From: Clostridia bacterium
GTDB lineage: Bacteria > Bacillota > Clostridia > TANB77 > CAG-508
Direction of reading: 5' to 3'
NCBI GenBank assembly: GCA_017939755.1
Contig: JAGBAJ010000038.1
Coordinates: 79,216-143,215, forward strand
Length of the DNA stretch: 64,000 nucleotides
In this document: positions 1,178 through 61,553 of the stretch, one piece after another
How the letters are laid out: the number at the start of each line of letters is the position of its first letter
Position numbering within the stretch: position 1 is the stretch's first letter
Notes under the pieces: model-generated
The model's database searches: none
What the model was told of the DNA's origin: nothing
Seen by the model: only the letters and a program-made list of their open reading frames with translations
Program-made: the position numbers and the translations under genes

Positions 1178-1204
1178 TTAGCACTCTTCTATTGACTTTG
1201 CTAA
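1178..1204 (+). promoter_or_regulatory. CIRCE-like (HrcA-type) operator, right half degenerate
   Basis: TTAGCACTC-N9-CTTTGCTAA compared with consensus TTAGCACTC-N9-GAGTGCTAA. It overlaps a possible -35 TTGACT and lies upstream of htpG. Confidence 0.45.
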
Positions 1205-1254
1205 AAAATGGGTATATCATACGATTTGTAAAGTAAAGAAGTAAGAGGTGTGTA

Positions 1255-1408
1255 GTGTGAAAGATAATTGATTTTTGCATCGTTAAATTTCATTTTAAAT
1301 CTAATCAACGTGCAAAGAGCACGCCTCATAGATTTAAAACTCATTTGCCTTGCAAAAATACAATTCTTTTTCACACAGAATTTGTGCCTAGATGGAATGG
1401 AGGTTTAT
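1255..1408 (+). repeat. Family A MITE-like element plus SD module (copy A1) in the htpG leader
   Basis: TIRs GTGAAAGATAATTGATTTTTGCA (1257-1279) and TGCAAAAATACAATTCTTTTTCAC (1351-1374), then AATTTGTGCCTAGATGGAATGGAGG. Near-identical copies at 10861 and 61060. Confidence 0.85.
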
Positions 1409-5196: not shown

Positions 5197-5214
5197 AATA
5201 AAAAACAAACATAC

Positions 5215-5261
5215 GCGGGCTGAACTCTATACTAAATAATTTAGGATAGTAATCAGCCCGC
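5215..5261. terminator. Long hairpin between convergent genes
   Basis: GCGGGCTGA (5215-5223) pairs with TCAGCCCGC (5253-5261). There is additional inner pairing and a T-rich tail. Confidence 0.5.
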
Positions 5262-5425
5262 TATTGTTATATATTAGGAAAGTCATGCTGAATTTTCCTA
5301 ATATATATAAGCTTTGCAAAAACAGATGCACAGAAATTTTATGCAATAAAATTTCGTGCTGAACATCTATTAGTTGTGTGAATGAATACATAGGAAATTT
5401 ACTGAATAAACAAAGATTTTTCAAA
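5262..5425. repeat. Family B mosaic repeat (copy B1)
   Basis: Hairpin module TATATATTAGGAAAGTCATGCTGAATTTTCCTAATATATA, followed by ...AACAGATGCACAGAAATTTTATGCAATAAAATTTCGTGCTGAACATCTATTAG...GTGTGAATGAA. Shared with 7411-7641 and 16931-17175. Confidence 0.8.
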
Positions 5426-5430
5426 TTTAC

Positions 5431-6288
5431 TTAACAGTAGATTTCAAATTTTTGAATAAATTTGTCATCTTGCATTTGAGTGAATAAATCTAAATTTGTA
5501 TTTTTTGATAAGATTTGGTGAACTTCCCACAAACCAATACCAGAATTATTTTCTTTTGTTGAGAATCCCTTTTCGAATAGTTTATCAACAGAGATGTTCT
5601 TGTTTATAAATGTATTAATTATTTCAAATATATATTTTTGTTTATCATATGTTATAGTAACAGAAACAATCTTCTCTTCAGTTTCATTAGCTCCTTCTAA
5701 AGCATTATCTAGAAGAATACCTAAAATTTTTGAAATTTCGTATATATTGTTTTGTATTTTTGAAGTATCAACTAAAATTGATAAGTCCATTTGGATATGC
5801 ATTTTTGATGCCTTGTAAAGTTTGTCAGCCAGTATTCCATATATAGACGGATTAATTAAAAAGTTTGTGCATACCAAATCTAGATTATTAGTTTCTTTAC
5901 AATTATTACTTAGTTGAGAATAAAACTTTTTCAGTCCATTCATATCATTTAGCTCTATATATCCACTAATAGATTGAATTATATTATTAAAATCATGCTT
6001 AAAACATCTGATATTATTGTGTAAAGATTCTAAAGTTATGATATAATATTTAGCCATATCAAGCTCTCTTTTTATGTTTTTGTATGAGATTACTTTAAAT
6101 ATATAAGATGTACCTATTAAATTTGATACTATAAGCAGGGGCAACAAAGTTGCTACAATGTATGAAATTGAAACTATATCTTTTAATATAATAAATAAAC
6201 AAGTAATTATTAAAAATGTGACTACCATACATAAAACATATAGAGCCAAACAAATCTTAAAGTGAATAGTATTTTCTGATTTTTTCAT
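5431..6288 (-). CDS. Sensor histidine kinase, AgrC/ComD-like (HPK10) GHKL ATPase, short membrane domain
   Basis: N-terminal TM helices. The H-box-like CFKHDFNNIIQSISGYIE and the GHKL motifs LLDNALEG and STKENNSGIGLW are present. Confidence 0.7.
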   Translation of the reverse strand: MKKSENTIHFKICLALYVLCMVVTFLIITCLFIILKDIVSISYIVATLLPLLIVSNLIGTSYIFKVISYKNIKRELDMAKYYIITLESLHNNIRCFKHDFNNIIQSISGYIELNDMNGLKKFYSQLSNNCKETNNLDLVCTNFLINPSIYGILADKLYKASKMHIQMDLSILVDTSKIQNNIYEISKILGILLDNALEGANETEEKIVSVTITYDKQKYIFEIINTFINKNISVDKLFEKGFSTKENNSGIGLWEVHQILSKNTNLDLFTQMQDDKFIQKFEIYC

Positions 6289-6518
6289 TGTTGTACCTCC
6301 AAATAATTTATCGCAATATTTTTTACTTGGGCTCTTTTTAGAGGCTTTCGAATAAAAATTTGCTGTAATTTATATGATGTATTAATAATTTTATATACAT
6401 ATTGTATATTTATCTAACATATTTTTTACAACCATAAATATATATTAATATATAATAGTTGCTGACTTTTTTATAATATAATTAAAATTTTGTTTTGTAA
6501 ATAATAAAGGAGGATATT

Positions 6519-7304
6519 ATGAAAAAAAAGTCTATTTTTATGCAGATTACGGCATTTTTTGTTGTAGCAATAGTCTTATTTGTGTGCATTAGTAGTAAAA
6601 ATGATGTTGTAAGAACGAGCTCTTCAGATAGTTATTCAGGTTTAAGCAATAAGAAAATAGGATGGGGAATTAAAAGATCAGATAATCATGAACAACCAGA
6701 TGTTGGCAGTGAAAATAAACGTATAATGGATAAGTATAATGGATTGTATTTAGGAAACACAGAAAAAAAATATGTATATTTAACATTTGATGCTGGATAT
6801 GAAGCAGGATATACAGAGCAATTGCTAGAAACATTAAGAAATAATAACGTTAAAGCTACATTTTTTATAACAGGTCATTATTTAAATACACAACCTGATT
6901 TAATAAAAAAAATGATTGATGATGGAAATATAGTTGGCAATCATACAGTTAACCATAAAGTTATGCCAGATATAAGTATTGATGAAATTAATAAAGATGT
7001 AATGGGCTTGCATAAAGCAATGTACGAGAAGTTTGGATATGAAATGAAATATTCACGTCCACCTAAAGGAGAATTTAGCGAAAGAACAATAAGTTATACA
7101 AATTCATTAGGATATACTACTGTAATGTGGTCTTTAGCTTATGATGATTGGGATGAAAAGAAGCAGGGGAGAGAGGAGTACGCAAAGGAAAAAATCTTAA
7201 ATAATATTCATAATGGAGCAATTATATTATTACATTCGAATTCAAAAGATAATTGCAATATTTTAGATTATGTTATTAAAGAAATAAAGAATCAGCGGTT
7301 ATGA
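6519..7304 (+). CDS. pdaA: Delta-lactam-biosynthetic de-N-acetylase PdaA-like polysaccharide deacetylase (3' end apparently frameshifted)
   Basis: Signal/TM segment, then WGIKRSDNHEQPD, YLTFDAGYEAGYT and GNHTVNH (NodB motifs). The expected C-terminus GYEFKSLDEFEK is encoded in the +1 frame at 7297-7335. Confidence 0.8.
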   Translation: MKKKSIFMQITAFFVVAIVLFVCISSKNDVVRTSSSDSYSGLSNKKIGWGIKRSDNHEQPDVGSENKRIMDKYNGLYLGNTEKKYVYLTFDAGYEAGYTEQLLETLRNNNVKATFFITGHYLNTQPDLIKKMIDDGNIVGNHTVNHKVMPDISIDEINKDVMGLHKAMYEKFGYEMKYSRPPKGEFSERTISYTNSLGYTTVMWSLAYDDWDEKKQGREEYAKEKILNNIHNGAIILLHSNSKDNCNILDYVIKEIKNQRL

Positions 7305-7410: not shown

Positions 7411-7641
7411 TTTGTTATACATTAGGAAAGTCATGTTGACTTTTCCTAATGTATAAAGAGGGCTTCGCCGAAAACAGATGCACAGAAATTTTATTGCATA
7501 AAATTTCGCGCCGAACATCGATTAGCCGTGTGAATGAAATGAATTACGGATAATACATACACAGGAAATTCACGGAAAACCTTCGATTTTCCGATTTGTT
7601 CTATAAGATTAAGATTTGTGCCCAGAAGGAATGGAGTTAAT
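7411..7641 (+). repeat. Family B mosaic repeat fused to SD module (copy B2)
   Basis: Hairpin module TACATTAGGAAAGTCATGTTGACTTTTCCTAATGTA, then GGCTTCGCCGAAAACAGATGCACA..., ending AAGATTTGTGCCCAGAAGGAATGGAG just before the yqfC ATG. Confidence 0.8.
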
Positions 7642-10373: not shown

Positions 10374-10852
10374 TGGATGATATAGTAGAAATTAATTATA
10401 TAGAAACAGATGAAAATCCAGAAAATGAAAAAATAATAGAAACAGTTCTAAAAGCTTGTTATAAAGAAGAAAAAATGGACAAGTTGGGGTTATATGTAAG
10501 TGTAACTTTAACTTGTCCGTCATATATAAGAAAAATAAATAAGCAATATCGAGAGATTGACAAAGAGACAGATGTACTATCATTTCCTATGTTTGAAAAA
10601 GAAGAAATTGATAAGATGGTAGAAAATCAGAGCAACCAAATAAAAGACATATTTGGAGATATTATTGTATCTGTTGATAGAGTAAAAGAGCAAGCTACCG
10701 AATATGGACATAGTTTTGAGAGAGAATTAGCATATATGATAGTGCATGGTTTTTATCATTTAAGAGGATATGATCATATGACAGATGATGAAAAAGTTGT
10801 TATGAGAGAGAAAGAAGAAGTTATATTAGAAAGATTAAAAATAACTAGATAG
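10373..10852 (+). CDS. ybeY: rRNA maturation endoribonuclease YbeY
   Basis: HGFYHLRGYDH zinc-binding motif (HGxLHLxGYDH). Confidence 0.92.
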   Translation: MDDIVEINYIETDENPENEKIIETVLKACYKEEKMDKLGLYVSVTLTCPSYIRKINKQYREIDKETDVLSFPMFEKEEIDKMVENQSNQIKDIFGDIIVSVDRVKEQATEYGHSFERELAYMIVHGFYHLRGYDHMTDDEKVVMREKEEVILERLKITR

Positions 10853-10860
10853 GGGAAAAT

Positions 10861-11011
10861 GTGAAAGATAATTGATTTTTGCATCGTTAAATTTCACTTT
10901 AAATCTAATCAATGTGCAAAAAGCACGCCTCATAGATTTAAAACTCATTTGCCTTGCAAAAATGCAATTCTTTTTCATATTAGATTTTGTAGAGAAGGAA
11001 TGGAGAATTTT
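10861..11011 (+). repeat. Family A MITE-like element plus SD module (copy A2) between ybeY and era
   Basis: About 90 % identical by eye to 1255-1408. Ends ...TAGATTTTGTAGAGAAGGAATGGAGAATTTT followed by the ATG. Confidence 0.85.
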
Positions 11012-11917
11012 ATGAGCGAGGAATTTAAATCGGGATTTGTCTCAATGATGGGGAGAACTAATGTAGGAAAGTCAAGTATAATGAATAGTTTGGTTAAAGA
11101 AAAAGTAGCTGCAATAGCAAATAAACCACAAACAACAAGAAATGCTATAAGAGCCATTGTTAACAGAGACAACCTACAAATAGTTTTTATTGATACACCT
11201 GGTATTCATAAACCAAAATCGAAACTTGGAAATGTAATGGTTGAAACTGCTTTTGGCGTCGTTCCAGATGTTGATGTTGTGTTATTTGTTATTGAGGCTA
11301 CATCCGATAGCATTGGAAAAGGTGATAGAATTATTCTTGATAGAATAAAAGAGTCCAATAAAAAGGCAATTTTAATAATTAATAAAATCGATTTGGTAAG
11401 GAGAGAAAGTATTGCTAAACTTATTGATTTATATAAAGATGAGTATAATTTTGAAGCGATAATTCCTGTATCTGTTGAAAAAAATATAAATATGGATGCA
11501 ATAATTGATGAAATTAGTAAACATTTAAAAGTTGGTCCTGCATATTATGATATAGAGGAATATACAGACCAAACTTTAAGACAGTTAGTAGAAGAAATTA
11601 TTAGAGAAAAAGCATTAAGGCTTCTAAATGATGAAGTTCCTCATGGAATATATGTAGAAACAGAAAAAATGAAAGAGCGTGAATCTAAGTCAGGAGAACC
11701 TATATACGATGTTGATGCAACAATATATTGTTTAAGAAATTCTCACAAGGGAATAATTATTGGAAAAGACGGAAATATGCTCAAAAAAATTGCATCGTAT
11801 GCAAGAATGGATTTGGAGAAAATGCTAGATGTAAAAATAAATTTAAAGGTATGGGTTAAAGTCAAAGAAGATTGGCTAAATAATGATAGTCTTGTTAAAA
11901 AATTTAAATTACAATAG
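11012..11917 (+). CDS. era: GTPase Era
   Basis: GFVSMMGRTNVGKSS (G1), DTPG (G3), NKID (G4), and a C-terminal KH domain. The start is taken at the ATG after GGAG. The upstream 21 codons are repeat read-through. Confidence 0.95.
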   Translation: MSEEFKSGFVSMMGRTNVGKSSIMNSLVKEKVAAIANKPQTTRNAIRAIVNRDNLQIVFIDTPGIHKPKSKLGNVMVETAFGVVPDVDVVLFVIEATSDSIGKGDRIILDRIKESNKKAILIINKIDLVRRESIAKLIDLYKDEYNFEAIIPVSVEKNINMDAIIDEISKHLKVGPAYYDIEEYTDQTLRQLVEEIIREKALRLLNDEVPHGIYVETEKMKERESKSGEPIYDVDATIYCLRNSHKGIIIGKDGNMLKKIASYARMDLEKMLDVKINLKVWVKVKEDWLNNDSLVKKFKLQ

Positions 11918-12877: not shown

Positions 12878-13075
12878 AAAATTCACAGCTAAATAATAAA
12901 GATTAGTGATATAGTGTAAATTTATAATATTACGCCCCAACTGCATAAGAAAATTTATATTTTTACTGTGTTGTAAAAATTAAATTCTCTAATTTGCTGG
13001 TCCTCACCTTAACTTCATATTATAAATTTACACTATATCACTAATCTTATATGAAAATAAGTTAAGTTGTGAGTT
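12878..13075 (+). repeat. Family R palindromic MITE-like element (copy R1)
   Basis: A 32-bp perfect stem (12899-12930 with 13017-13048) flanks the core TACGCCCCAACTGCA...TTTGCTGGTCCTCACCTTAACTTC. Outer ends are AAATTCACAGCT and a degenerate AAGTTGTGAGTT. Confidence 0.85.
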
Positions 13076-13164: not shown

Positions 13165-13360
13165 AGCTATTCTAATCCCTGCATAGTGCGTGTAGACTGA
13201 AATTTTAGAACCAACGCGGATTAAACGGGAATCTGCCTTTGGATGTGGCGTGCAAGCTTAACTCGTATTAAGAAGCCCAGAAGCATTCAACAAGATACCC
13301 ACCTGTGAAAGCAGGTCCTTAAAATTTCACTAATCCTTACGGCTAAAGCGGGGCTCTTTT
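13165..13360 (+). ncRNA. ssrS: 6S RNA (SsrS)-like regulatory RNA
   Basis: About 195-nt non-coding rod. The 5' TCCCTGC pairs with the 3' GCGGGG, and TGAAATTTTA (13198-) pairs with TAAAATTTCA (13319-). From memory, it contains blocks reminiscent of E. coli and B. subtilis 6S (GATGTGGCG, GAAGCC, CATTCA, CCCACCTG...GCAGGTC hairpin). It has its own promoter and a downstream terminator. Confidence 0.65.
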
Positions 13361-16932: not shown

Positions 16933-17175
16933 TATTTATATATTAGGAAAGTCATGCTGATTTTTCCTAATATATAAAAAAGGCTTCGCCGAAAACAGAT
17001 GCACATCGATTAGCCGTGCGTAACGAAGTTAAGATAGCTGTGCGAATGAAATGAGCTACAGATATCTTATGCAAAGCTTAGCTACGGATAATACATGCGC
17101 CGAACAAATTCACGGAAAATCTTCGGTTTCCAGATTTGTTCTCTAATATGGAAAGTAGAACTTTCCTAAATACGT
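16931..17175 (+). repeat. Family B mosaic repeat (copy B3)
   Basis: Hairpin module TATATATTAGGAAAGTCATGCTGATTTTTCCTAATATATA, then GGCTTCGCCGAAAACAGATGCACA, ...ACGGATAATACATGCGCCGAACAAATTCACGGAAAATCTTCGGTTTCCAGATTTGTTCT. Confidence 0.8.
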
Positions 17176-18534: not shown

Positions 18535-18696
18535 GTTGAAAAAACAATTACAATTTTGGCTGTGTCAAATTTCTTTTAAAACATGGTTACATACAATGAG
18601 TATGTGCCCTTGCTGTTTAAATTAAATTTTCCTTACCAAAATTTAAACCTTCTTAGGCTGCTAGATTTGTACTTTGAGGAAGGAATATGATTACAT
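18535..18696 (+). repeat. Family A' MITE-like element plus SD module (copy A'1) between nusB and xseA
   Basis: GTTGAAAAAACAATTACAATTTTGGC...TACCAAAATTTAAACCTTCTTAGGC, then CTAGATTTGTACTTTGAGGAAGGAAT. Closely matches 40466-40620. Confidence 0.8.
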
Positions 18697-19887
18697 ATGG
18701 AATATAATCCAATTACAGTTACAGAGCTAAACCTATATATAAAAGAAAGATTTAGTTCAGATGAATATTTGAATAATGTACTTATAAAAGGTGAAATTTC
18801 AAATTTTAAACATCATTATACAGGTCACATGTATTTTACACTAAAAGATGAGAATTCACTAATAAAGTGTGTTATGTTTAAATCATATACTAATAATTTA
18901 AACTTTGTTCCAAAGGATGGTATGAAAGTTATTATTCTTGGAACTGTCTCTGTCTATGAAAGGGATGGAGTATATCAGATATATTGTAAGGGAATGCAAG
19001 AAGATGGACTTGGTAGTTTACATGTTGCGTATGAGGAGCTAAAGGCAAAACTAGAGAAAGAAGGCCTTTTTGACGAAGCTCATAAAAAGCCTATACCTAA
19101 AATGCCAAAATGTATTGGTGTATTAACATCTAATACAGGAGCTGTTATACGTGATATTATTAATGTATCTACAAGAAGAAATCCAAATGTAAATATAAAA
19201 TTATTACCTGTTCCTGTCCAAGGTGAAGGTGCTGCACCAAAAATAGCAAAGGCAATTAAGATTATGAATGAACTTAATATGGTGGATGTTATAATTATTG
19301 CTAGAGGTGGTGGATCATTAGAGGATCTTTGGCCATTTAATGAGGAGATTGTAGCAAGAGCTATTTATGATTCTGAGTTACCAGTAATATCAGCAGTTGG
19401 TCACGAAACGGATTTTTCTATTTCGGATTTTGTAGCTGATTTAAGAGCTCCTACACCATCAGCAGCGGCTGAACTTGCAGTTCCAAATATTTCAGATATA
19501 ATTATTAAATTAAATAATTACGATTTAAGATATAAAAATGCATTAAAAAAGAAAATAGAGGTAATGCGTTTAAGATATGAAAAATGCATGATGAATAGGG
19601 TTTTTAGAAATCCATTACAAGGAATACAAGATAGGTATGTGTACATAGATAGACTTAATAAATCAATGCAAACTAGTGTAACATCAAAGATTCATACAAG
19701 TAAAACTAAAATGGTTGAGTTGATTACTAAATTGGACAACTTAAGTCCATTAAAGACTTTAACTAGAGGGTATTCGATTTTAGAAAAGGATAAATCTGTG
19801 ATAAAATCAGTTAAAGATCTTTCTAAAGGTGATCAGATAAATATTAGATTAATAGACGGAATTGCAAAAGCTAAAATTTGTGAATAG
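18697..19887 (+). CDS. xseA: Exodeoxyribonuclease VII large subunit
   Basis: N-terminal OB fold (VLIKGEISNFKHHYTGHMYFTLKD) and the core IGVLTSNTGAVIRDI...ARGGGSLEDLWPFNEE. Confidence 0.93.
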   Translation: MEYNPITVTELNLYIKERFSSDEYLNNVLIKGEISNFKHHYTGHMYFTLKDENSLIKCVMFKSYTNNLNFVPKDGMKVIILGTVSVYERDGVYQIYCKGMQEDGLGSLHVAYEELKAKLEKEGLFDEAHKKPIPKMPKCIGVLTSNTGAVIRDIINVSTRRNPNVNIKLLPVPVQGEGAAPKIAKAIKIMNELNMVDVIIIARGGGSLEDLWPFNEEIVARAIYDSELPVISAVGHETDFSISDFVADLRAPTPSAAAELAVPNISDIIIKLNNYDLRYKNALKKKIEVMRLRYEKCMMNRVFRNPLQGIQDRYVYIDRLNKSMQTSVTSKIHTSKTKMVELITKLDNLSPLKTLTRGYSILEKDKSVIKSVKDLSKGDQINIRLIDGIAKAKICE

Positions 19888-36720: not shown

Positions 36721-36745
36721 AAAGTCTATAATATTTAAGGAATTC

Positions 36746-36811
36746 AAGATATAATATTAATTTATAAGTTTCGACCCCACACGGAAGAATAAGTAATTGT
36801 TGCTGTGCTTT
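36746..36811 (+). repeat. Family R repeat, truncated left half (copy R2')
   Basis: AAGATATAATATTAATTTATAAGTTTCGACCCCACACGGAAGAATAAGTAATTGTTGCTGTGCTTT aligns with 52541-52605 of the full copy. The right half is absent. Confidence 0.7.
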
Positions 36812-36837
36812 ATAATTGTATAATTTAAAATAAAAAA

Positions 36838-36868
36838 ATAGCTAGGCGCAAAAGCCTAGCTATTTTTT
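36838..36868. terminator. Bidirectional rho-independent terminator
   Basis: Stem ATAGCTAGGC / GCCTAGCTAT flanked by an A7 run (5') and a T6 run (3'). It lies between convergent mutS and the 36915-37535 gene, and is followed by a family-B hairpin module (36867-36903). Confidence 0.75.
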
Positions 36869-36914
36869 ATATAATAGGGAAGTCAAACTTTCCTATTATA
36901 TAAAATAAAAATTA

Positions 36915-39805: not shown

Positions 39806-39857
39806 AGTGAAAGATAATTAATTTTTTCAGATTTGTTCTAAAGAAATGGAGGTTAGT
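39806..39857 (+). repeat. Family A short form plus SD module (copy A5)
   Basis: AGTGAAAGATAATTAATTTTTTCAGATTTGTTCTAAAGAAATGGAGG is the left TIR fused directly to the tail/SD module. Confidence 0.6.
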
Positions 39858-40454: not shown

Positions 40455-40465
40455 AATGGAGTAAG

Positions 40466-40620
40466 GTTGAAAAATAATTACAATTTTGGCTGTGTCAAAG
40501 TTTATTTAAAACGCGGTTACATACAATAAGTATGCGTTCTTGCTTTTTAAATTGAATTTTCCTTGCCGAAATTTAATTCTTTTCCAACTGGATTTGTGCT
40601 TAGAAGGAATGGAGTAATAT
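40466..40620 (+). repeat. Family A' MITE-like element plus SD module (copy A'2)
   Basis: TIRs GTTGAAAAATAATTACAATTTTGGC / GCCGAAATTTAATTCTTTTCCAAC, then TGGATTTGTGCTTAGAAGGAATGGAG, and the ATG at 40621. Confidence 0.85.
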
Positions 40621-41346
40621 ATGGATATCAAGTTAATTACAAAAAAATGTCCAAATTGTGGAGCAAATTTAAAATTTAATATGAGTGATACTTCTGTTAC
40701 ATGTGAGTATTGCGGAACATATGCACTAATAGAGCATGATAGAAAAAATATGTATACTACTACAGAACCTGGCGTAAATAGAATATATGTAAATAAAGCT
40801 GGAGAGGTATTTAAGTGGGTAAGCCGTGCAATTATATCTGCAATGCTATTAATATTTGGAATTATGATGTGCTCGTTAAGTAGCCCTATTTATGGAGTTA
40901 TTTTAATTTTTGGTGCAATATTAACAATGTTGCCAATATCAATAAAGGGAATTGACAAGATACCACATTTGAGAGCTGCAATAATTGCTATAATATTTTT
41001 TGTTGGTTTCTTTGGCGGATGTATGTCTATGTACGAATTACCATCAGAATTTCAAGGGAAATACGTATCAGATACTTCAGGTATTATTGTTGAAATTAAA
41101 GGAAATAACATTAAAGTTACAGATGGTGATTATGTTGTGAAAGAAAAATTATATACGTGGGAAGAAACCTGGGGACACGTTACATATCACAATATAAAAG
41201 TAAACAATGGTGAGTATGAATTTAGATTGGTGGATCATGGTGGGGTAGAATTTCAATTTTATGAGAGAGCTCCATATGGCACCCCAAAAACTTTTTATTA
41301 CAATACAAAAAATAAGAGCAAATATATTTGTGAAGAAAAATATTAG
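40621..41346 (+). CDS. Zinc-ribbon membrane protein, function unknown
   Basis: N-terminal CPNCG...CEYCG, 3-4 TM helices, and a soluble C-domain. Confidence 0.6.
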   Translation: MDIKLITKKCPNCGANLKFNMSDTSVTCEYCGTYALIEHDRKNMYTTTEPGVNRIYVNKAGEVFKWVSRAIISAMLLIFGIMMCSLSSPIYGVILIFGAILTMLPISIKGIDKIPHLRAAIIAIIFFVGFFGGCMSMYELPSEFQGKYVSDTSGIIVEIKGNNIKVTDGDYVVKEKLYTWEETWGHVTYHNIKVNNGEYEFRLVDHGGVEFQFYERAPYGTPKTFYYNTKNKSKYICEEKY

Positions 41347-41383
41347 ACACGATTTTTCAGTTCTAAATGTACATAAAATGAGT

Positions 41384-41416
41384 GATTCAAAGTATAACGC
41401 TTTGAATCTCTATTTT
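41384..41416 (+). terminator. Putative terminator hairpin
   Basis: Stem GATTCAAAG / CTTTGAATC with a T-rich tail. Confidence 0.5.
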
Positions 41417-41510
41417 ATATAATAGGAAAGCTCTACTTTCCTATTATATAAAAAATAAACATTGCACACAAATTTTCTTTGAAAATTTGGCGCATGAACA
41501 AATAAACATT
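41413..41510 (+). repeat. Family B repeat, partial (copy B5)
   Basis: Hairpin module TATATAATAGGAAAGCTCTACTTTCCTATTATATA, then AACATTGCACACAAATTTTCTTTGAAAATTTGGCGCATGAACAAAT (related to the second module of B1). Confidence 0.65.
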
Positions 41511-41552
41511 TACAAAACTTATTTTTATACTATATTTTTTTGAGGAGATTAA

Positions 41553-43553
<2,001 letters not shown>

Positions 43554-48575: not shown

Positions 48576-48796
48576 GTTACAATTCACAGCTTTAAAATTA
48601 TGTAATAAAGATTAGCAATATAATGTAAATTTATAATATTACGCCCCAACTACATAAGAGAATCTATTTTTTTTACAGCGTGATACACTTGTAAAAATTA
48701 GATTCTCTAATTTGTTGGTCCCCACCTTAACTTCATATTATAAATTTACATTATATTGCTAATCTTATATGAAATTAAGCTGTGAATCGTAGTTAC
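48576..48796 (+). repeat. Family R palindromic MITE-like element (copy R3)
   Basis: A 32-bp perfect stem (48608-48639 with 48735-48766) and the core TACGCCCCAACTACA...TTTGTTGGTCCCCACCTTAACTTC. Ends are GTTACAATTCACAGC / GCTGTGAATCGTAGTTAC. AGTTACCAATT occurs at both borders. Confidence 0.85.
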
Positions 48797-49893: not shown

Positions 49894-52125
49894 ATGAGAG
49901 TATTAATATACGAAGGTAAGGAATTTAGGTCTATTAGTCAACTTGCTGCATACACGGGAATAGAAAGATCAAGATTAAGTAGAGCAATACAAAAGAATAC
50001 AGATACTCCGATAGAAGATATTATAGCCACTTTAAAAGTTACTAAAACATATACTTATAATGGAAAAGAATATGATTCAATTAGGTCTGCTGCAGATGAT
50101 TTAAAATTAAATAAAAATACACTATCTAAGTATCTAAAATTAGCAAACGATAACTTAGAAGCAGCTATGGAGTTATTCCACAAAGAGCATACTTTTGCTA
50201 CAATAGATGGTGTTAGGTATTCCTCTGCTGAAAAATTAGCACATAAACTAGGAGTTAACAACATTACGCTTACTAAATATATAAACAAAAGTGCAACTAT
50301 CGAGGAGGCAGTTCAAGCAATAATAAGTATGAAAAATAAATATGTTTGGAGAGGAAAATCGTACGAGAGTGATTCTAGCCTGGCGCGTGCAATGGGAATG
50401 TCACGACCTACACTTCTTAGACTTATCGAAAAAAATGAGAGGATGAGTTTAGACGATATATATGAGTTATATCATTCTAGAAATGACGGAAAATTTAAAG
50501 GATATACATATGGAGGAAAAGAATATTCTTCATTAAGAGGTATGCTTACAGATTTAGATATCTCTCCTCAAAGATATTACGGAAAAATCGAAGAATGTGG
50601 TGGTGATATGGAAAAGGCTATAGAGCTACTACTTGAAGAAAATGAAGAAAGAAAACATAAAGCTGAAGAAAAATTAAAATCAGAATTAGAGCAAAAAGCT
50701 CTAATGGAAAAGAAAAAAATAGAGGCTCCAGTGTACACATTTAATGGGGAGGAATATCAGTCTATAGCGGCATTATCAAGAGCAGTTGGGATTAGTGAAA
50801 CCACGATAAAAAGATTATTAGTTGAATACGGTAATGACTTAGATGCAGCCATAAAAGATAGAGCAGAAAATAAAATTATATACAACTATCAAGGTGTAGA
50901 ATATCCTAGCATAAAGGCTTTGTCTGCTGCCACAGGAATAAAAGAGCTAAGACTAGGAAGATATATACGAAAATATAATCGTGATGCTGAAAAAGCAATT
51001 TTTATGATCAAACTAAGAGATTCTAGACTAAAAGCTAATAAAGAGAAAGATTCAGATATAAATATTCAAGATATAGCAATTATATTAGGTATTAAACGTA
51101 GAGATTTAGAAACATTACTTAATAGTGGGATGTCCATTGATGAGATAAAAGATAGTTTATCCAGAGGAGATTTATCTGTAGCTGAAAGAGGTATCAGAGC
51201 AAAAAAAGTAATGTATGATGAAAAACAAAGTTTGCATGAATATTGTGTAGAGCATGGTTTGAACTATAGTTGTATATATTATGCAATGACAACCTATGGA
51301 AAGACTAAGGAACAAGCAATACAAAACTATAAGGAAAATGGACAAAAAATACCGACTGCATGGATTTATGAAAGATATGGAGTTTTACTAAAACATTTAT
51401 TACTTTCAGAAAATATAGATTCAAAAAAAATTATTGCACATATGCGTGTATTTGGTACTTCTTTAGAGGAGGCAATTGAAAACTATATAATTGATGATAT
51501 CTCCAAAGAAAGAGATTTAGATAAATTTTGGCAACGCGAAGTATATTCAGCTCTTACATTAGATATTTTTTCTGAGGATGAAAAAAATGATTTTATAAAA
51601 GAGTTTAGGATAAATTCAGATGAGATACAGGCTACAGAAGATTGTAAAGCAAGAATTGACCAAGTAAAAAGAAAGATGCTTCTTTACGAAATGTCTGAAT
51701 GTATACAAGAGGAACTATTTACTAAAACTGAAATGGCTACAATTATGCGTATGTACAATATATCTGCAGATGAACTTGAAACAATTTTCTTGGAGTTATA
51801 TTCTAAATTTGATAATAAAGTATTATTAGGTAGTGAGCAAGATGAGTTAACGAGAAGAAGGCAGATAATACAATATATAAAGGAATTACCAAGTTATTCT
51901 GAAGAGAATATTAGTGATTTACGAGCAAAAGTTTCTGAGGATGAGTATAAACATATTATAGAAACGTCAAATTTAATTCAGACATACAAAGAAGCGGTTA
52001 CTACTGATGCAGATTTATTAAAGCTTATGAGATCCACTGTACGTGATAATATATCAACTAATGTAGAAACAAGAAAAGAGTTATCTAAATCAATTGAACC
52101 AAAAGATAAAATAGTTAAAAGATAG
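49894..52125 (+). CDS. Hypothetical 743-aa protein made of tandem NUMOD1-like HTH modules
   Basis: At least 7 repeats of about 49 aa, Y.Y.GKEY.S...LA...GI....L.RYI.K.....E.AI (for example YTYNGKEYDSIRSAADDLKLNKNTLSKYLK and YTFNGEEYQSIAALSRAVGISETTIKRLL), plus degenerate copies. No nuclease motif was seen. Confidence 0.65.
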   Translation: MRVLIYEGKEFRSISQLAAYTGIERSRLSRAIQKNTDTPIEDIIATLKVTKTYTYNGKEYDSIRSAADDLKLNKNTLSKYLKLANDNLEAAMELFHKEHTFATIDGVRYSSAEKLAHKLGVNNITLTKYINKSATIEEAVQAIISMKNKYVWRGKSYESDSSLARAMGMSRPTLLRLIEKNERMSLDDIYELYHSRNDGKFKGYTYGGKEYSSLRGMLTDLDISPQRYYGKIEECGGDMEKAIELLLEENEERKHKAEEKLKSELEQKALMEKKKIEAPVYTFNGEEYQSIAALSRAVGISETTIKRLLVEYGNDLDAAIKDRAENKIIYNYQGVEYPSIKALSAATGIKELRLGRYIRKYNRDAEKAIFMIKLRDSRLKANKEKDSDINIQDIAIILGIKRRDLETLLNSGMSIDEIKDSLSRGDLSVAERGIRAKKVMYDEKQSLHEYCVEHGLNYSCIYYAMTTYGKTKEQAIQNYKENGQKIPTAWIYERYGVLLKHLLLSENIDSKKIIAHMRVFGTSLEEAIENYIIDDISKERDLDKFWQREVYSALTLDIFSEDEKNDFIKEFRINSDEIQATEDCKARIDQVKRKMLLYEMSECIQEELFTKTEMATIMRMYNISADELETIFLELYSKFDNKVLLGSEQDELTRRRQIIQYIKELPSYSEENISDLRAKVSEDEYKHIIETSNLIQTYKEAVTTDADLLKLMRSTVRDNISTNVETRKELSKSIEPKDKIVKR

Positions 52126-52502: not shown

Positions 52503-52722
52503 TGTTACAATTTACAGCTAATAAGATCTTGTTAGAATTTAAAGATATAATATCAATTTATGAGTTCCACCCCAACTGCAGAGAATAAGTAATTGTTGCT
52601 TTGCTGTACGCTTGCAACATTCACTTATTCTACTTTGTTGGTCCCCGCCTTAATTTCACATCATAAATTGATATTATATCTTTAAAGTTTTATATATTGC
52701 TATTTAGCTGTGAATTGTAACA
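52503..52722 (+). repeat. Family R palindromic MITE-like element (copy R4, variant core)
   Basis: TIRs TGTTACAATTTACAGCT / AGCTGTGAATTGTAACA. Core CCACCCCAACTGCAGAGAATAAGT...ACTTATTCTACTTTGTTGGTCCCCGCCTTAATTTCA. Confidence 0.85.
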
Positions 52723-52808: not shown

Positions 52809-52876
52809 GTGTGAAAGATAATTGATTTTCCAATTTGTTCTACAAGATTTGTGCTTGGAAGGAATGGAGGATTTGT
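52809..52876 (+). repeat. Family A short form plus SD module (copy A4)
   Basis: GTGTGAAAGATAATTGATTTTCCAATTTGTTCTACAAGATTTGTGCTTGGAAGGAATGGAGG. Confidence 0.7.
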
Positions 52877-54837: not shown

Positions 54838-55464
54838 ATGGCAATTTATATAATAATGGCTGTTATTGCGTATGCAATAGGAAGTATAAACTTTTCTATT
54901 ATATTTAGTAAAAAGTTTGCAGGTTTTGATGTTAGAGAAAAAGGAAGTGGCAATGCTGGAACAACAAATATGCTTCGAAGTGTTGGAAAGGGATTAGCAG
55001 CATTAACACTTATATGTGATATTCTAAAAGGTGTTATTTCAATTCTAATTGCAATTGGAATTGGAAAAATTGCAAAAGATATTAAACCAGAAATTGTTGT
55101 TCAAGTAGCAGGTATATTTGCAATTATTGGACATACATTTCCAGTATATTTTGGATTTAAAGGTGGAAAAGGTGTTGCAACATCACTAGGAATATTATTA
55201 TTAACAAATTGGCAAATAGGATTAATATGTATGGTATTTGCATTAGTATTAATGATTTTGACAAGAATGGTTTCATTAGGATCAATAATGGCTGCAGTAC
55301 TATTTCCAATTCTAACAATATTTATAACAGATAATTATATTGTAGAAGGAAATTATATTATATTTGGCTTAATAATGGCTTTAATAGTAATATTTAATCA
55401 TAGATCAAACATAAAGAGAATATACAATGGAGAAGAAAACAGATTAAGTTTAAAGAAATCATAA
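54838..55464 (+). CDS. plsY: Glycerol-3-phosphate acyltransferase PlsY
   Basis: GSGNAGTTN, HTFPVYFGFKGGKGVAT, 5-6 TM segments. Alternative GTG at 54826. Confidence 0.93.
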   Translation: MAIYIIMAVIAYAIGSINFSIIFSKKFAGFDVREKGSGNAGTTNMLRSVGKGLAALTLICDILKGVISILIAIGIGKIAKDIKPEIVVQVAGIFAIIGHTFPVYFGFKGGKGVATSLGILLLTNWQIGLICMVFALVLMILTRMVSLGSIMAAVLFPILTIFITDNYIVEGNYIIFGLIMALIVIFNHRSNIKRIYNGEENRLSLKKS

Positions 55465-55469
55465 ATTAG

Positions 55470-55568
55470 AAATTAGGGACGGGGTTCAATTTTAAATAAT
55501 TTAAATTGGGGACGGGGTTCAATTCTAAATAATTTGAATAAGGGACGGAGTTCAATATTAAAGTATTT
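55470..55568 (+). repeat. Three tandem 33-bp direct repeats
   Basis: AAATTAGGGACGGGGTTCAATTTTAAATAATTT, AAATTGGGGACGGGGTTCAATTCTAAATAATTT, and GAATAAGGGACGGAGTTCAATATTAAAGTATTT, with a partial fourth unit to about 55587. Confidence 0.85.
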
Positions 55569-61059: not shown

Positions 61060-61211
61060 GTGTGAAAGATAATTGATTTTTGCATCGTTAGATTTTATTT
61101 TATATCTAATTTACGTGAAAAAAAGCGTGCCTCATAGATTTGAACATTTACCTTGCAAAAATTCAATTCTTTTTCACACTAAATTTGTACTTAGAAGGGA
61201 TGGAGATTATT
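61060..61211 (+). repeat. Family A MITE-like element plus SD module (copy A3)
   Basis: GTGTGAAAGATAATTGATTTTTGCATCGTTAGATTTT...CCTTGCAAAAATTCAATTCTTTTTCACAC, then TAAATTTGTACTTAGAAGGGATGGAG. Confidence 0.85.
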
Positions 61212-61553
61212 ATGAGTAATGTTTATGACGCAGCCAACAAATTGGCAAGTGAAATAAGACAATCAGAAGAATTTATAAAATATAGAGATGCAAAGAAAAA
61301 GGTTCTTGCTAATCCAGATCAAAAAGAAAGAATTGAAGAATTTGAAAAAATTAGATACGAGGTTCAAGTACTATCAATGGAAAAAGGAGAGAAAAGCCCA
61401 GAAAAAATGCAAAAATTACAAGACTTATATACAATTTTAATTGATAATAAAGACATTAAAGAATATTTCGATTTAGAGGTTCGATTCAATGTTATGGTTG
61501 CTGATATAAACAAGATAATAGCGGAGTCAATGGAAGATATATTTGTAAAATAA
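61212..61553 (+). CDS. YlbF/YmcA-family (UPF0342) regulatory protein
   Basis: VYDAANKLASEIRQSEEFIKYRDAKKKV... The size (113 aa) is typical of the family. Confidence 0.7.
   Translation: MSNVYDAANKLASEIRQSEEFIKYRDAKKKVLANPDQKERIEEFEKIRYEVQVLSMEKGEKSPEKMQKLQDLYTILIDNKDIKEYFDLEVRFNVMVADINKIIAESMEDIFVK

Follow-up and report, generated by a model that had tools for sequence, protein, structure and literature searches.

How does a palindromic repeat come to stand directly in front of the start codons of unrelated housekeeping genes, always in the orientation of the gene, and is its RNA of use to the host? The question is raised by the 64-kb stretch of clostridial DNA analysed here (the window), in which an initial annotation had described five copies of such a repeat, three of them full and two short. 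All five were present at their stated positions, and a profile search combined with a covariance model built from the copies (model R1) detected three more, all on the + strand, namely two A2 copies at 18535-18696 and 40465-40620 and a tail-only copy at 7590-7641. This repeat, referred to as Family A, is thus represented in the window by three near-identical full copies (subfamily A1), two full diverged copies (A2), two short forms and one tail-only copy. As first claimed, every copy shares the orientation of the gene downstream: 8/8 are found on the + strand, each directly next to a start codon on that strand. The covariance-model scan, which the annotation had proposed for the whole genome and its relatives, was run on the window and on the relatives' loci, and detected no copy on the - strand of the window, minus-strand matches being palindromes that match themselves at much lower scores. 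No further copies were found in the flanks of the window on its source scaffold (ENA ERZ28654709 scaffold_50, 221 kb), of which 9.4 kb upstream and 7.6 kb downstream were searched, so that the sequence covered amounts to 81 kb of the source genome and ~190 kb of relatives.

The core of Family A is a hairpin module of ~122 nt, an imperfect palindrome in which 24-nt terminal inverted repeats (TIRs) enclose a middle stem capped by a short tip stem, and which occurs in at least three sequence subfamilies (A1, A2 and a type found in the genome HGM13623). The ends of Family A are of the GTGTGAAAGATAATTGATTTTTGCA type, and those of the A2 subfamily read GGTTGAAAAATAATTACAATTTTGGC ... GCCGAAATTTAATTCTTTTCCAAC. 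The shared TIRs of about 24 bp reported for the first copies were recovered well above chance, with five matches to the left arm GTGAAAGATAATTGATTTTTGCA in the window at up to three mismatches, all on the + strand (0.00 in dinucleotide shuffles), and three matches to the right arm (shuffle mean 0.03). Full copies span 152-162 nt from their first base to the ATG and contain no conserved ORF. Family A thus displays the usual traits of bacterial MITEs, being short (<~300 bp), non-coding, multi-copy and bounded by TIR arms of ~24 nt. The earlier description of a MITE-like, recently expanded repeat is further supported by the 97% identity between the A1 copies at htpG and era (family D1) and by the variable presence of copies between related genomes.

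On the 3' side of the hairpin lies a tail module of ~32 nt, ATTTGTGCTTAGAAGGAATGGAG, which ends in a strong Shine-Dalgarno (SD) sequence, GGAATGGAG[G]. Family A had been said to end 25-35 nt before the ATG, and this holds for the TIR, whose end lies 31-33 nt from the ATG, but not for the repeat as a whole: similarity among copies runs past the right TIR and through the tail and its SD, to 5-7 nt from the ATG (family D4). The spacing between the GGAG of the tail and the ATG is 5-7 nt in seven of the eight copies, the exception being the xseA copy, in which the tail is degenerate. The tail varies less among copies than the hairpin does and is common to A1, A2 and copies with other modules (family D4), and its conservation reaches ~20 nt upstream of the SD.

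The three A1 copies precede htpG, era and a ylbF-like gene. At htpG, the hairpin module occupies the 5' UTR from TIR to TIR (1255..1376, + strand; fold -43.2 kcal/mol, z -9.6; 140 bits against model R1), followed by a tail with the SD GGAATGGAGG and a 6-nt spacer (1377..1408, +; family D4) up to the htpG ATG at 1409. The copy between ybeY and era consists of a hairpin module at 10859..10980 (+), identified by fold and covariance model, and a tail at 10981..11011 (+) with the SD GGAATGGAG and a 6-nt spacer, delimited by comparison of filled and empty sites, with the era ATG at 11012. The third A1 hairpin module lies between a GT4 glycosyltransferase gene and the ylbF-like gene (61060..61179, +; 119.5 bits), and its tail with SD (61180..61211, +; family D4) leads to the ylbF-like ATG at 61212. 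The two A2 copies lie before xseA and after pgsA: the hairpin module between nusB and xseA (18535..18659, +; 92.8 bits) has a degenerate right arm and is followed by the degenerate tail GAGGAAGGAATATGATTACAT (18660..18696, +) and the xseA ATG at 18697, in a junction that is 13-15 nt long in relatives, and the one located after pgsA (40465..40589, +; 101.7 bits), for which an orthologous A2 hairpin exists in the related locus L088, is followed by a canonical tail with SD (40590..40620, +; family D4) and the ATG of a 241-aa zinc-ribbon ORF at 40621. Of the short forms, the one before pgsA (39807..39857, +; ATG 39858) is an A1 left arm fused straight to a tail, and the one before the DJ-1/PfpI gene (52809..52876, +; ATG 52877; families D4, D7 and D10) comprises an A1 left arm, a duplicated ATTTGT motif and a tail. 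The tail-only copy before yabP (7590..7641, +; ATG 7642; families D4 and D10) is fused to another repeat module (7566-7609) within a mosaic spacer of ~290 nt, where relatives have <40 nt.

Syntenic regions of related uncultured Clostridia, retrieved via Era and PgsA homologues, show what these junctions look like when empty. Six related genomes (five with Era 87-91% identical and one with PgsA 84% identical) have neither the hairpin nor a tail-like sequence in ~110 kb of largely syntenic DNA. Junctions in relatives measure 8-11 nt for ybeY-era, 13-15 nt for nusB-xseA and 18 nt for RNHCP-pgsA, compared to spacers of 159, 174 and 60 nt in the window at era, xseA and pgsA, respectively. Insertion polymorphism was thus observed at era, xseA, yabP and pgsA, all of which are empty in relatives (the pgsA site in L091), and the synteny of junctions only 8-15 nt long in relatives supports the earlier suggestion that copies lie within operons. 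Since neither hairpin nor tail is found in the tight junctions of the six relatives, the tail does not derive from a native leader and instead arrived with the repeat.

The filled and empty sites at era also place the insertion relative to the gene. The window reads ...AGA TAG GGGAAAAT GTGAAAGATAATT...GGAATGGAGAATTTT ATG, with the element beginning at |GTGAAAG..., and the empty sites read ...AGA TAG GGGATTAT ATG (L078) and TAG GGGTCATT ATG (L068). The left side of the filled site retains the old SD (GGGG) and the 8-nt stop-to-start remnant, this former host SD and spacer being GGGGAAAAT at 10852-10860, and the element starts at the former position of the ATG. The A2 element at xseA opens with a TTG, and 13 nt lie between it and the nusB stop, against 13-15 nt from stop to ATG in empty sites; the old SD there has decayed from GTGAGG to GTAAAA. 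Remnants between stop codon and element at the other operon-internal copies measure 6-12 nt, or about one original spacer. Filled sites can be aligned with empty ones over the N-terminal codons of both Era and XseA, which shows the downstream ATG to be the original start, and the host SD and spacer stranded to the left of the element at both genes indicate insertion at the start codon, with the element supplying a new ribosome-binding site (RBS). Judging from these alignments, the insertion point lies at, or no more than a few nt from, the boundary between spacer and ATG, and the gene would now depend on the SD of the tail. The exact left boundary is ambiguous by ~4 nt, with TAGT found before the GTG in 5/7 A1-type copies and absent at era, and a TA is found beside the hairpin at 61060 and that of L002, and not beside those at 1255, 10859 or 40465. 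A long target-site duplication gained no clear support, as the likeness seen by eye between left flank and own tail (p = 0.12 in a permutation against other tails) probably reflects a generic stop-plus-SD composition.

We consider it probable, with real room for doubt, that Family A consists of mobile, non-autonomous palindromic repeats equipped with a portable RBS, whose insertion is tolerated only in an orientation and a place in which this RBS serves the downstream gene. Its mobility would proceed by transposition, with an enzyme acting in trans, and the SD of the tail is likely the one in actual use. Family A would insert directly 5' of a start codon and in the orientation of the gene, which would strand the SD and spacer of the host to the left of the element, and the tail SD, 5-7 nt before the ATG, would take over translation initiation. 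As it contains neither promoter nor terminator, the element would be read through as part of the mRNA, and compact operons, with their very short spacers, would hence tolerate its insertion in one orientation only. Following insertion, the tail alone would be maintained because it now acts as the RBS of the gene, and the hairpin would decay or be swapped.

Several features of the copies bear on how neutral such an insertion might be for gene expression. The earlier placement of the elements in transcribed spacers is consistent with the sequence of the full copies, within which no + strand promoter-like (sigma-70-like) or terminator-like site was found. At htpG, a sigma-70-type promoter (TTGACT-17-TATCAT; 1192..1220, +) is located outside of the repeat and upstream of it, so that this copy is part of the transcribed leader. 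A CIRCE-like half site, TTAGCACTC, at 1179 overlaps the same promoter (1179-1220), which suggests that the htpG leader now containing the repeat is under HrcA-type heat-shock control. No through-ORF with a stop codon overlapping the downstream start was identified: the reading frames of A2 terminate within the hairpin and differ between the A2 copies. A conserved leader peptide or through-ORF was likewise rejected, the only candidate seen being the A1 4-codon GTG AAA GAT AAT followed by a stop. Sequestration of the SD by Family A was rejected too, as the region from SD to ATG has a mean unpaired probability of 0.37-0.60 and no conserved pairing partner.

The strict position next to a start codon could stem from the choice of target or from the survival of harmless insertions, and we think that both play a part, some of the targeting being real. 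In favour of such targeting are the htpG copy, located in a 5' UTR, and those at DJ-1 and yabP, located in long spacers: insertions elsewhere in these regions should do no harm, yet all three abut the ATG. On the other hand, the A2 hairpin found after pgsA in L088 is followed by the native ligA leader and not by a canonical tail, showing that alternative arrangements can occur or be produced by deletion, which counts against targeting; this tail-less hairpin may reflect either a hairpin moving alone or a local deletion. That Family A actively targets start sites, integrating at the boundary between SD-spacer and ATG and swapping the host RBS as a mobile "RBS cassette", is accordingly a reading we regard as possible but doubtful. 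One extension of active targeting concerns the left end of the element. The A1 left end, TAGTGTGAAAGATAATTGA, contains stop codons in all three frames within 20-25 nt, and places a 4-codon mini-ORF, GTG AAA GAT AAT TGA, at the former ATG position, with TAA instead of TGA as its stop in the pgsA copy and in a second species (HGM13623). This mini-ORF is absent from A2 and from two diverged copies. It would make ribosomes loaded at the stranded SD terminate at once, which is suggestive only, and the view that a GTG or TTG start with an early stop is an adaptation disposing of ribosomes from the stranded native SD is offered tentatively, as one that may well prove wrong.

We next consider the role proposed by the initial annotation, i.e. 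a host-beneficial structured leader or intercistronic RNA in which the TIR hairpin acts as a processing site (for instance for RNase III), a stabiliser or an element of translational control. The hairpin itself is real and very stable: the three A1 copies each fold as one long hairpin of -33 to -43 kcal/mol (z -5.8 to -9.6 against shuffles), forming a rod in which the outer stem made by the TIRs is followed by an internal loop, then a middle stem and finally a short stem at the tip. Folding is less extreme for A2 and HGM13623 copies (z -1.9 to -5.2), although the architecture is kept in all three subfamilies: their sequences have diverged while their folds remain alike, and 11/37 consensus pairs are preserved via two-sided changes. 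Transcription is certain at the operon-internal sites, and the outer helix of ~24 bp has what we take, by analogy with Correia elements, to be the size of an RNase III substrate. These pair-preserving changes show selection for the palindrome without telling apart a benefit to the host from one to the element, and the same pattern would be expected of a transposition intermediate or of two identical ends being bound. Attempts to determine the strand of a functional RNA from + versus - folding energies and G-U counts yielded no consistent asymmetry, so that the palindrome could equally matter as DNA. No match was found in Rfam at the gathering threshold, and a permissive search of three element regions returned only chance-level microRNA and sRNA matches (E >=0.5).

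Comparison with close relatives weighs further against a selected role of the hairpin RNA. At pgsA, the sequence GGAGGTTAGTATG is identical in the window and in L088 (PgsA 92%); the window precedes it with a left arm only, and L088 with 7 nt of the left arm joined to a right arm. In L089 (PgsA 95%), the same site contains another module followed by a similar tail, AAATGGAGGATAATATG. The era site of L075 (98% relative) consists of an A1 left arm, another module and a tail, and the yabP site of that relative carries an A2 short form in place of the 290-nt mosaic of the window, both of them ending in AATGGAGTTAATATG. Sister lineages have thus lost or replaced the hairpin by different routes and kept the tail, and within the tail, the part upstream of the SD (ATTTGTGC) decays in sister orthologues while the GGAATGGAG-like SD persists. 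Across these close relatives (92-98%), the hairpin looks dispensable for the host and only the RBS looks selected, as far as can be read from sequence comparison. Furthermore, the six genomes that are empty at the same junctions do without Family A entirely, the genes served (htpG, yabP, era, xseA, pgsA, DJ-1 and ylbF) are unrelated housekeeping ones, and conserved pairing that would sequester the SD was not seen. We therefore consider a selected RNA-level role of the TIR hairpin unlikely, and this part of the annotation was not upheld.

Another possibility is that the orientation of Family A reflects replication and not genes, as would be expected for single-strand insertion of the IS200/IS605 or REP/RAYT kind, with genes on the leading strand making copies seem gene-locked. 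Most genes of the window are on the + strand, so that the 8/8 copies on this same gene-rich strand cannot by themselves separate gene-locking from a replication-strand bias; the hairpin-forming palindrome is also REPIN-like, and an obvious target duplication is absent. A second lineage is more informative in this respect. The same architecture was found in the human-gut Clostridia MAG HGM13623 and in two metagenome contigs (L002, L029 and L045), and L045 contains a full and a short copy which, 2 kb apart, occupy different strands; each of them has the orientation of the gene whose start codon it abuts, although this is a single case. Here, the full copy precedes a + strand gene beginning MENLLHVGLDVGSTTVK, which we take by eye to encode a BadF/BcrA-type ATPase, and the short copy, itself on the - strand, is flanked by two - strand genes and abuts the start of a gene beginning MKGKLYVVATPIGN, presumably rsmI-like on the same kind of reading. 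The locking of orientation and position to the next start codon claimed at first hence holds across all of the sequence reached, i.e. 8 copies in the window, with 81 kb of source genome covered, and 6 in relatives. A replication-strand bias would also leave the constant 5-7 nt between SD and ATG unexplained, the ends of Family A are true TIRs, unlike the differing subterminal hairpins of IS200/IS605, and no GTAG signature of REP sequences was found, GTAG being seen at the left end of one copy only. No Y1 transposase gene was found in 81 kb of the source genome, a stretch too short to exclude one. Overall, we give this explanation a slim chance.

Searches for the machinery and for the wider family of Family A covered several kinds of sequence. 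No transposase or autonomous partner with matching ends was found in the window, its 17 kb of flanks, the related loci, plasmids, phages or viral contigs. Two ORFs were considered as transposase candidates and rejected: the 241-aa ORF following an A2 copy had only a weak zinc-ribbon match, and the 743-aa ORF at 49894-52125 displayed NUMOD1 and many weak helix-turn-helix matches, with no transposase or nuclease domain above threshold. Scans with the left arm of GTDB representative genomes and JGI metagenomes gave chance matches and one orthologous site in HGM13623-like genomes, and from this we conclude that the source species is not among the GTDB representatives or JGI metagenomes scanned; viral contigs (searched with three patterns), plasmids and phages gave no Family A match. 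Established classes of mobile DNA were rejected mostly on anatomy. The ends do not fit the R''/R' cores of integron attC sites (RYYYAAC ... GTTRRRY) in the required order, and the flanking genes are syntenic housekeeping genes. An IS200/IS605-derived element (PATE) does not fit with ends that are true, mutually pairing TIRs and with a left TAGT present in only 5/7 A1-type copies, and IS110-type targeting was also rejected on anatomy.

Finally, it is very improbable that the tail is a cis-acting site for a trans regulator (an RNA-binding protein or small RNA) wiring unrelated genes together post-transcriptionally, for although its uniformity across A1, A2 and other-module copies and the conservation ~20 nt upstream of the SD would fit such a site, this upstream part (ATTTGTGC) is what decays in sisters that keep only the GGAATGGAG-like SD, no candidate regulator or complementary RNA was seen, and the gene set has no functional theme.

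A mobile repeat bringing its own RBS, as we favour for Family A, can be compared to several known systems. MIRUs are described as mobile repeats whose insertion at start codons affects expression minimally, their internal ORF being translationally coupled to the downstream gene through a stop codon overlapping its start (PMC12548453). Family A resembles them in being short, located within operons, co-oriented with the gene and placed at start codons, with a downstream gene that would stay expressed. It differs by the lack of a through-ORF, by its organization as a 122-nt hairpin plus a tail with a free-standing SD, and by its occurrence in another phylum. MIRUs, for their part, occur as tandem units and are not known to carry long terminal inverted repeats. 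The repeats REP2 (CREN) of Neisseria and IR of Borrelia are found directly upstream of ORFs, and include an RBS next to the ATG, a promoter and internal stem-loops (PMC3184786). As in these, the Family A repeat supplies an RBS beside the ATG, its GGAATGGAG being absent from empty sites; however, the Neisseria and Borrelia repeats have a promoter and no TIRs, whereas Family A has TIRs and no + strand promoter, and sits within operons, where it relies on read-through.

Other palindromic repeats are similar in structure and differ in placement. ERIC/IRU and Correia (CREE) elements are also imperfect palindromes with TIRs, of ~105-160 bp, located in transcribed intergenic DNA and forming long mRNA hairpins. 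Correia elements duplicate a TA, and their hairpins are cleaved by RNase III. In contrast to Family A, these elements are found in both orientations, at variable distances from genes and without providing the RBS of a gene; a TA duplication is seen at some Family A copies only, and there is no sequence similarity. REPIN, REP-RAYT and BIME repeats share with Family A a hairpin made of two inverted arms and a mosaic, modular intergenic layout, but no GTAG-type signature was found in Family A, which is AT-rich and not GC-rich and lies 5' at start codons and not 3' of genes, and the sequence covered (81 kb) contains no RAYT gene. A 2024 review of the functions of prokaryotic MITEs nowhere mentions an RBS or orientation (PMC10969869). 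Overall, Family A lacks the defining trait of each of its nearest counterparts, i.e. the coupled through-ORF of MIRUs and the promoter of REP2 and Borrelia IR, and mobile repeats that carry an RBS or sit at start codons form a rare but known kind, so that Family A is not categorically new.

Family A is one of several dispersed repeats in this small genome, which is unusually rich in intergenic ones. A second repeat family on the + strand (5267-5386, 7415-7538 and 16936-17005; families D5 and D12) consists of a terminator-like hairpin, TTATATATTAGGAAAGTCATG...TTTTCCTAATATATA, followed by a conserved AAAACAGATGCACAGAAATTTTAT..., and forms part of the 290-nt mosaic before yabP. A further module, AAATTCACGGAAAAnCTTCGnTTTCCnGATTTGTTCT, with a small hairpin, was identified at 7566-7609, 17106-17149, L075:3340-3400 and L089:1-60; as it is joined variously to the tail or the left arm of Family A, these intergenic repeats are mosaic and exchangeable. 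Families D3, D9 and D11 (70-90 nt, 75-92% identity) are intergenic as well, at 12894-13061, 48603-48779, 52534-52702 and 36738-36825, and one of them adjoins the region of the 6S RNA gene (13173-13358, +; Rfam RF00013, 108.8 bits). An AT-rich hairpin repeat located downstream of genes, TATATAATAGGGAAGT...ACTTTCCTATTATATA (family D8; 36860-36911, 41408-41459 and 54863-54914), looks like a shared terminator-type module, and the spacer between a plsY-like and a gpsA-like gene (55470-55568) contains three tandem copies of a 33-nt unit, AAATTAGGGACGGGGTTCAATTTTAAATAATTT.

Rearrangement breakpoints between close relatives coincide with repeats. Downstream of pgsA, the window (40621-41555) has the 241-aa zinc-ribbon ORF, a tail and a repeat hairpin between the A2 hairpin and ligA, L088 (2900-3100; 92% relative) has ligA directly after pgsA and the A2 hairpin, and in L089 (95% relative) pgsA is followed by a convergent Band_7 gene. 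An agr-like locus in L070:2945-5800 and L072:2963-5777 encodes AgrB, a 42-aa AgrD-like peptide, a histidine kinase of ~440 aa and a LytTR response regulator, and its counterpart in the window (5197-6520) contains only a 285-aa kinase remnant (- strand) and repeat modules. This agr-like quorum-sensing locus thus appears to have decayed in the lineage of the window.

For the organism, the dispersed mosaic copies of Family A coincide with local rearrangements among close relatives, and the RBSs of core genes (era, xseA, pgsA and htpG) have been replaced wholesale by a shared sequence, which could alter expression levels. The combination of tail and hairpin also provides a ready strain-typing marker for uncultured gut Clostridia, and a natural insulated RBS part. 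If active targeting were true, Family A would be an "RBS cassette" that standardises, and possibly rewires, translation initiation of core genes, as well as a TIR/hairpin repeat with start-codon-specific integration, a target choice undescribed for MITEs. More broadly, a selfish repeat can colonise a compact genome with operon spacers of 8-15 nt by carrying the RBS that its insertion destroys and by avoiding promoters and terminators. Taken together with MIRUs, this suggests that expression-neutral insertion at start codons arose independently in distant phyla, through a free SD in one case and a coupled ORF in the other.
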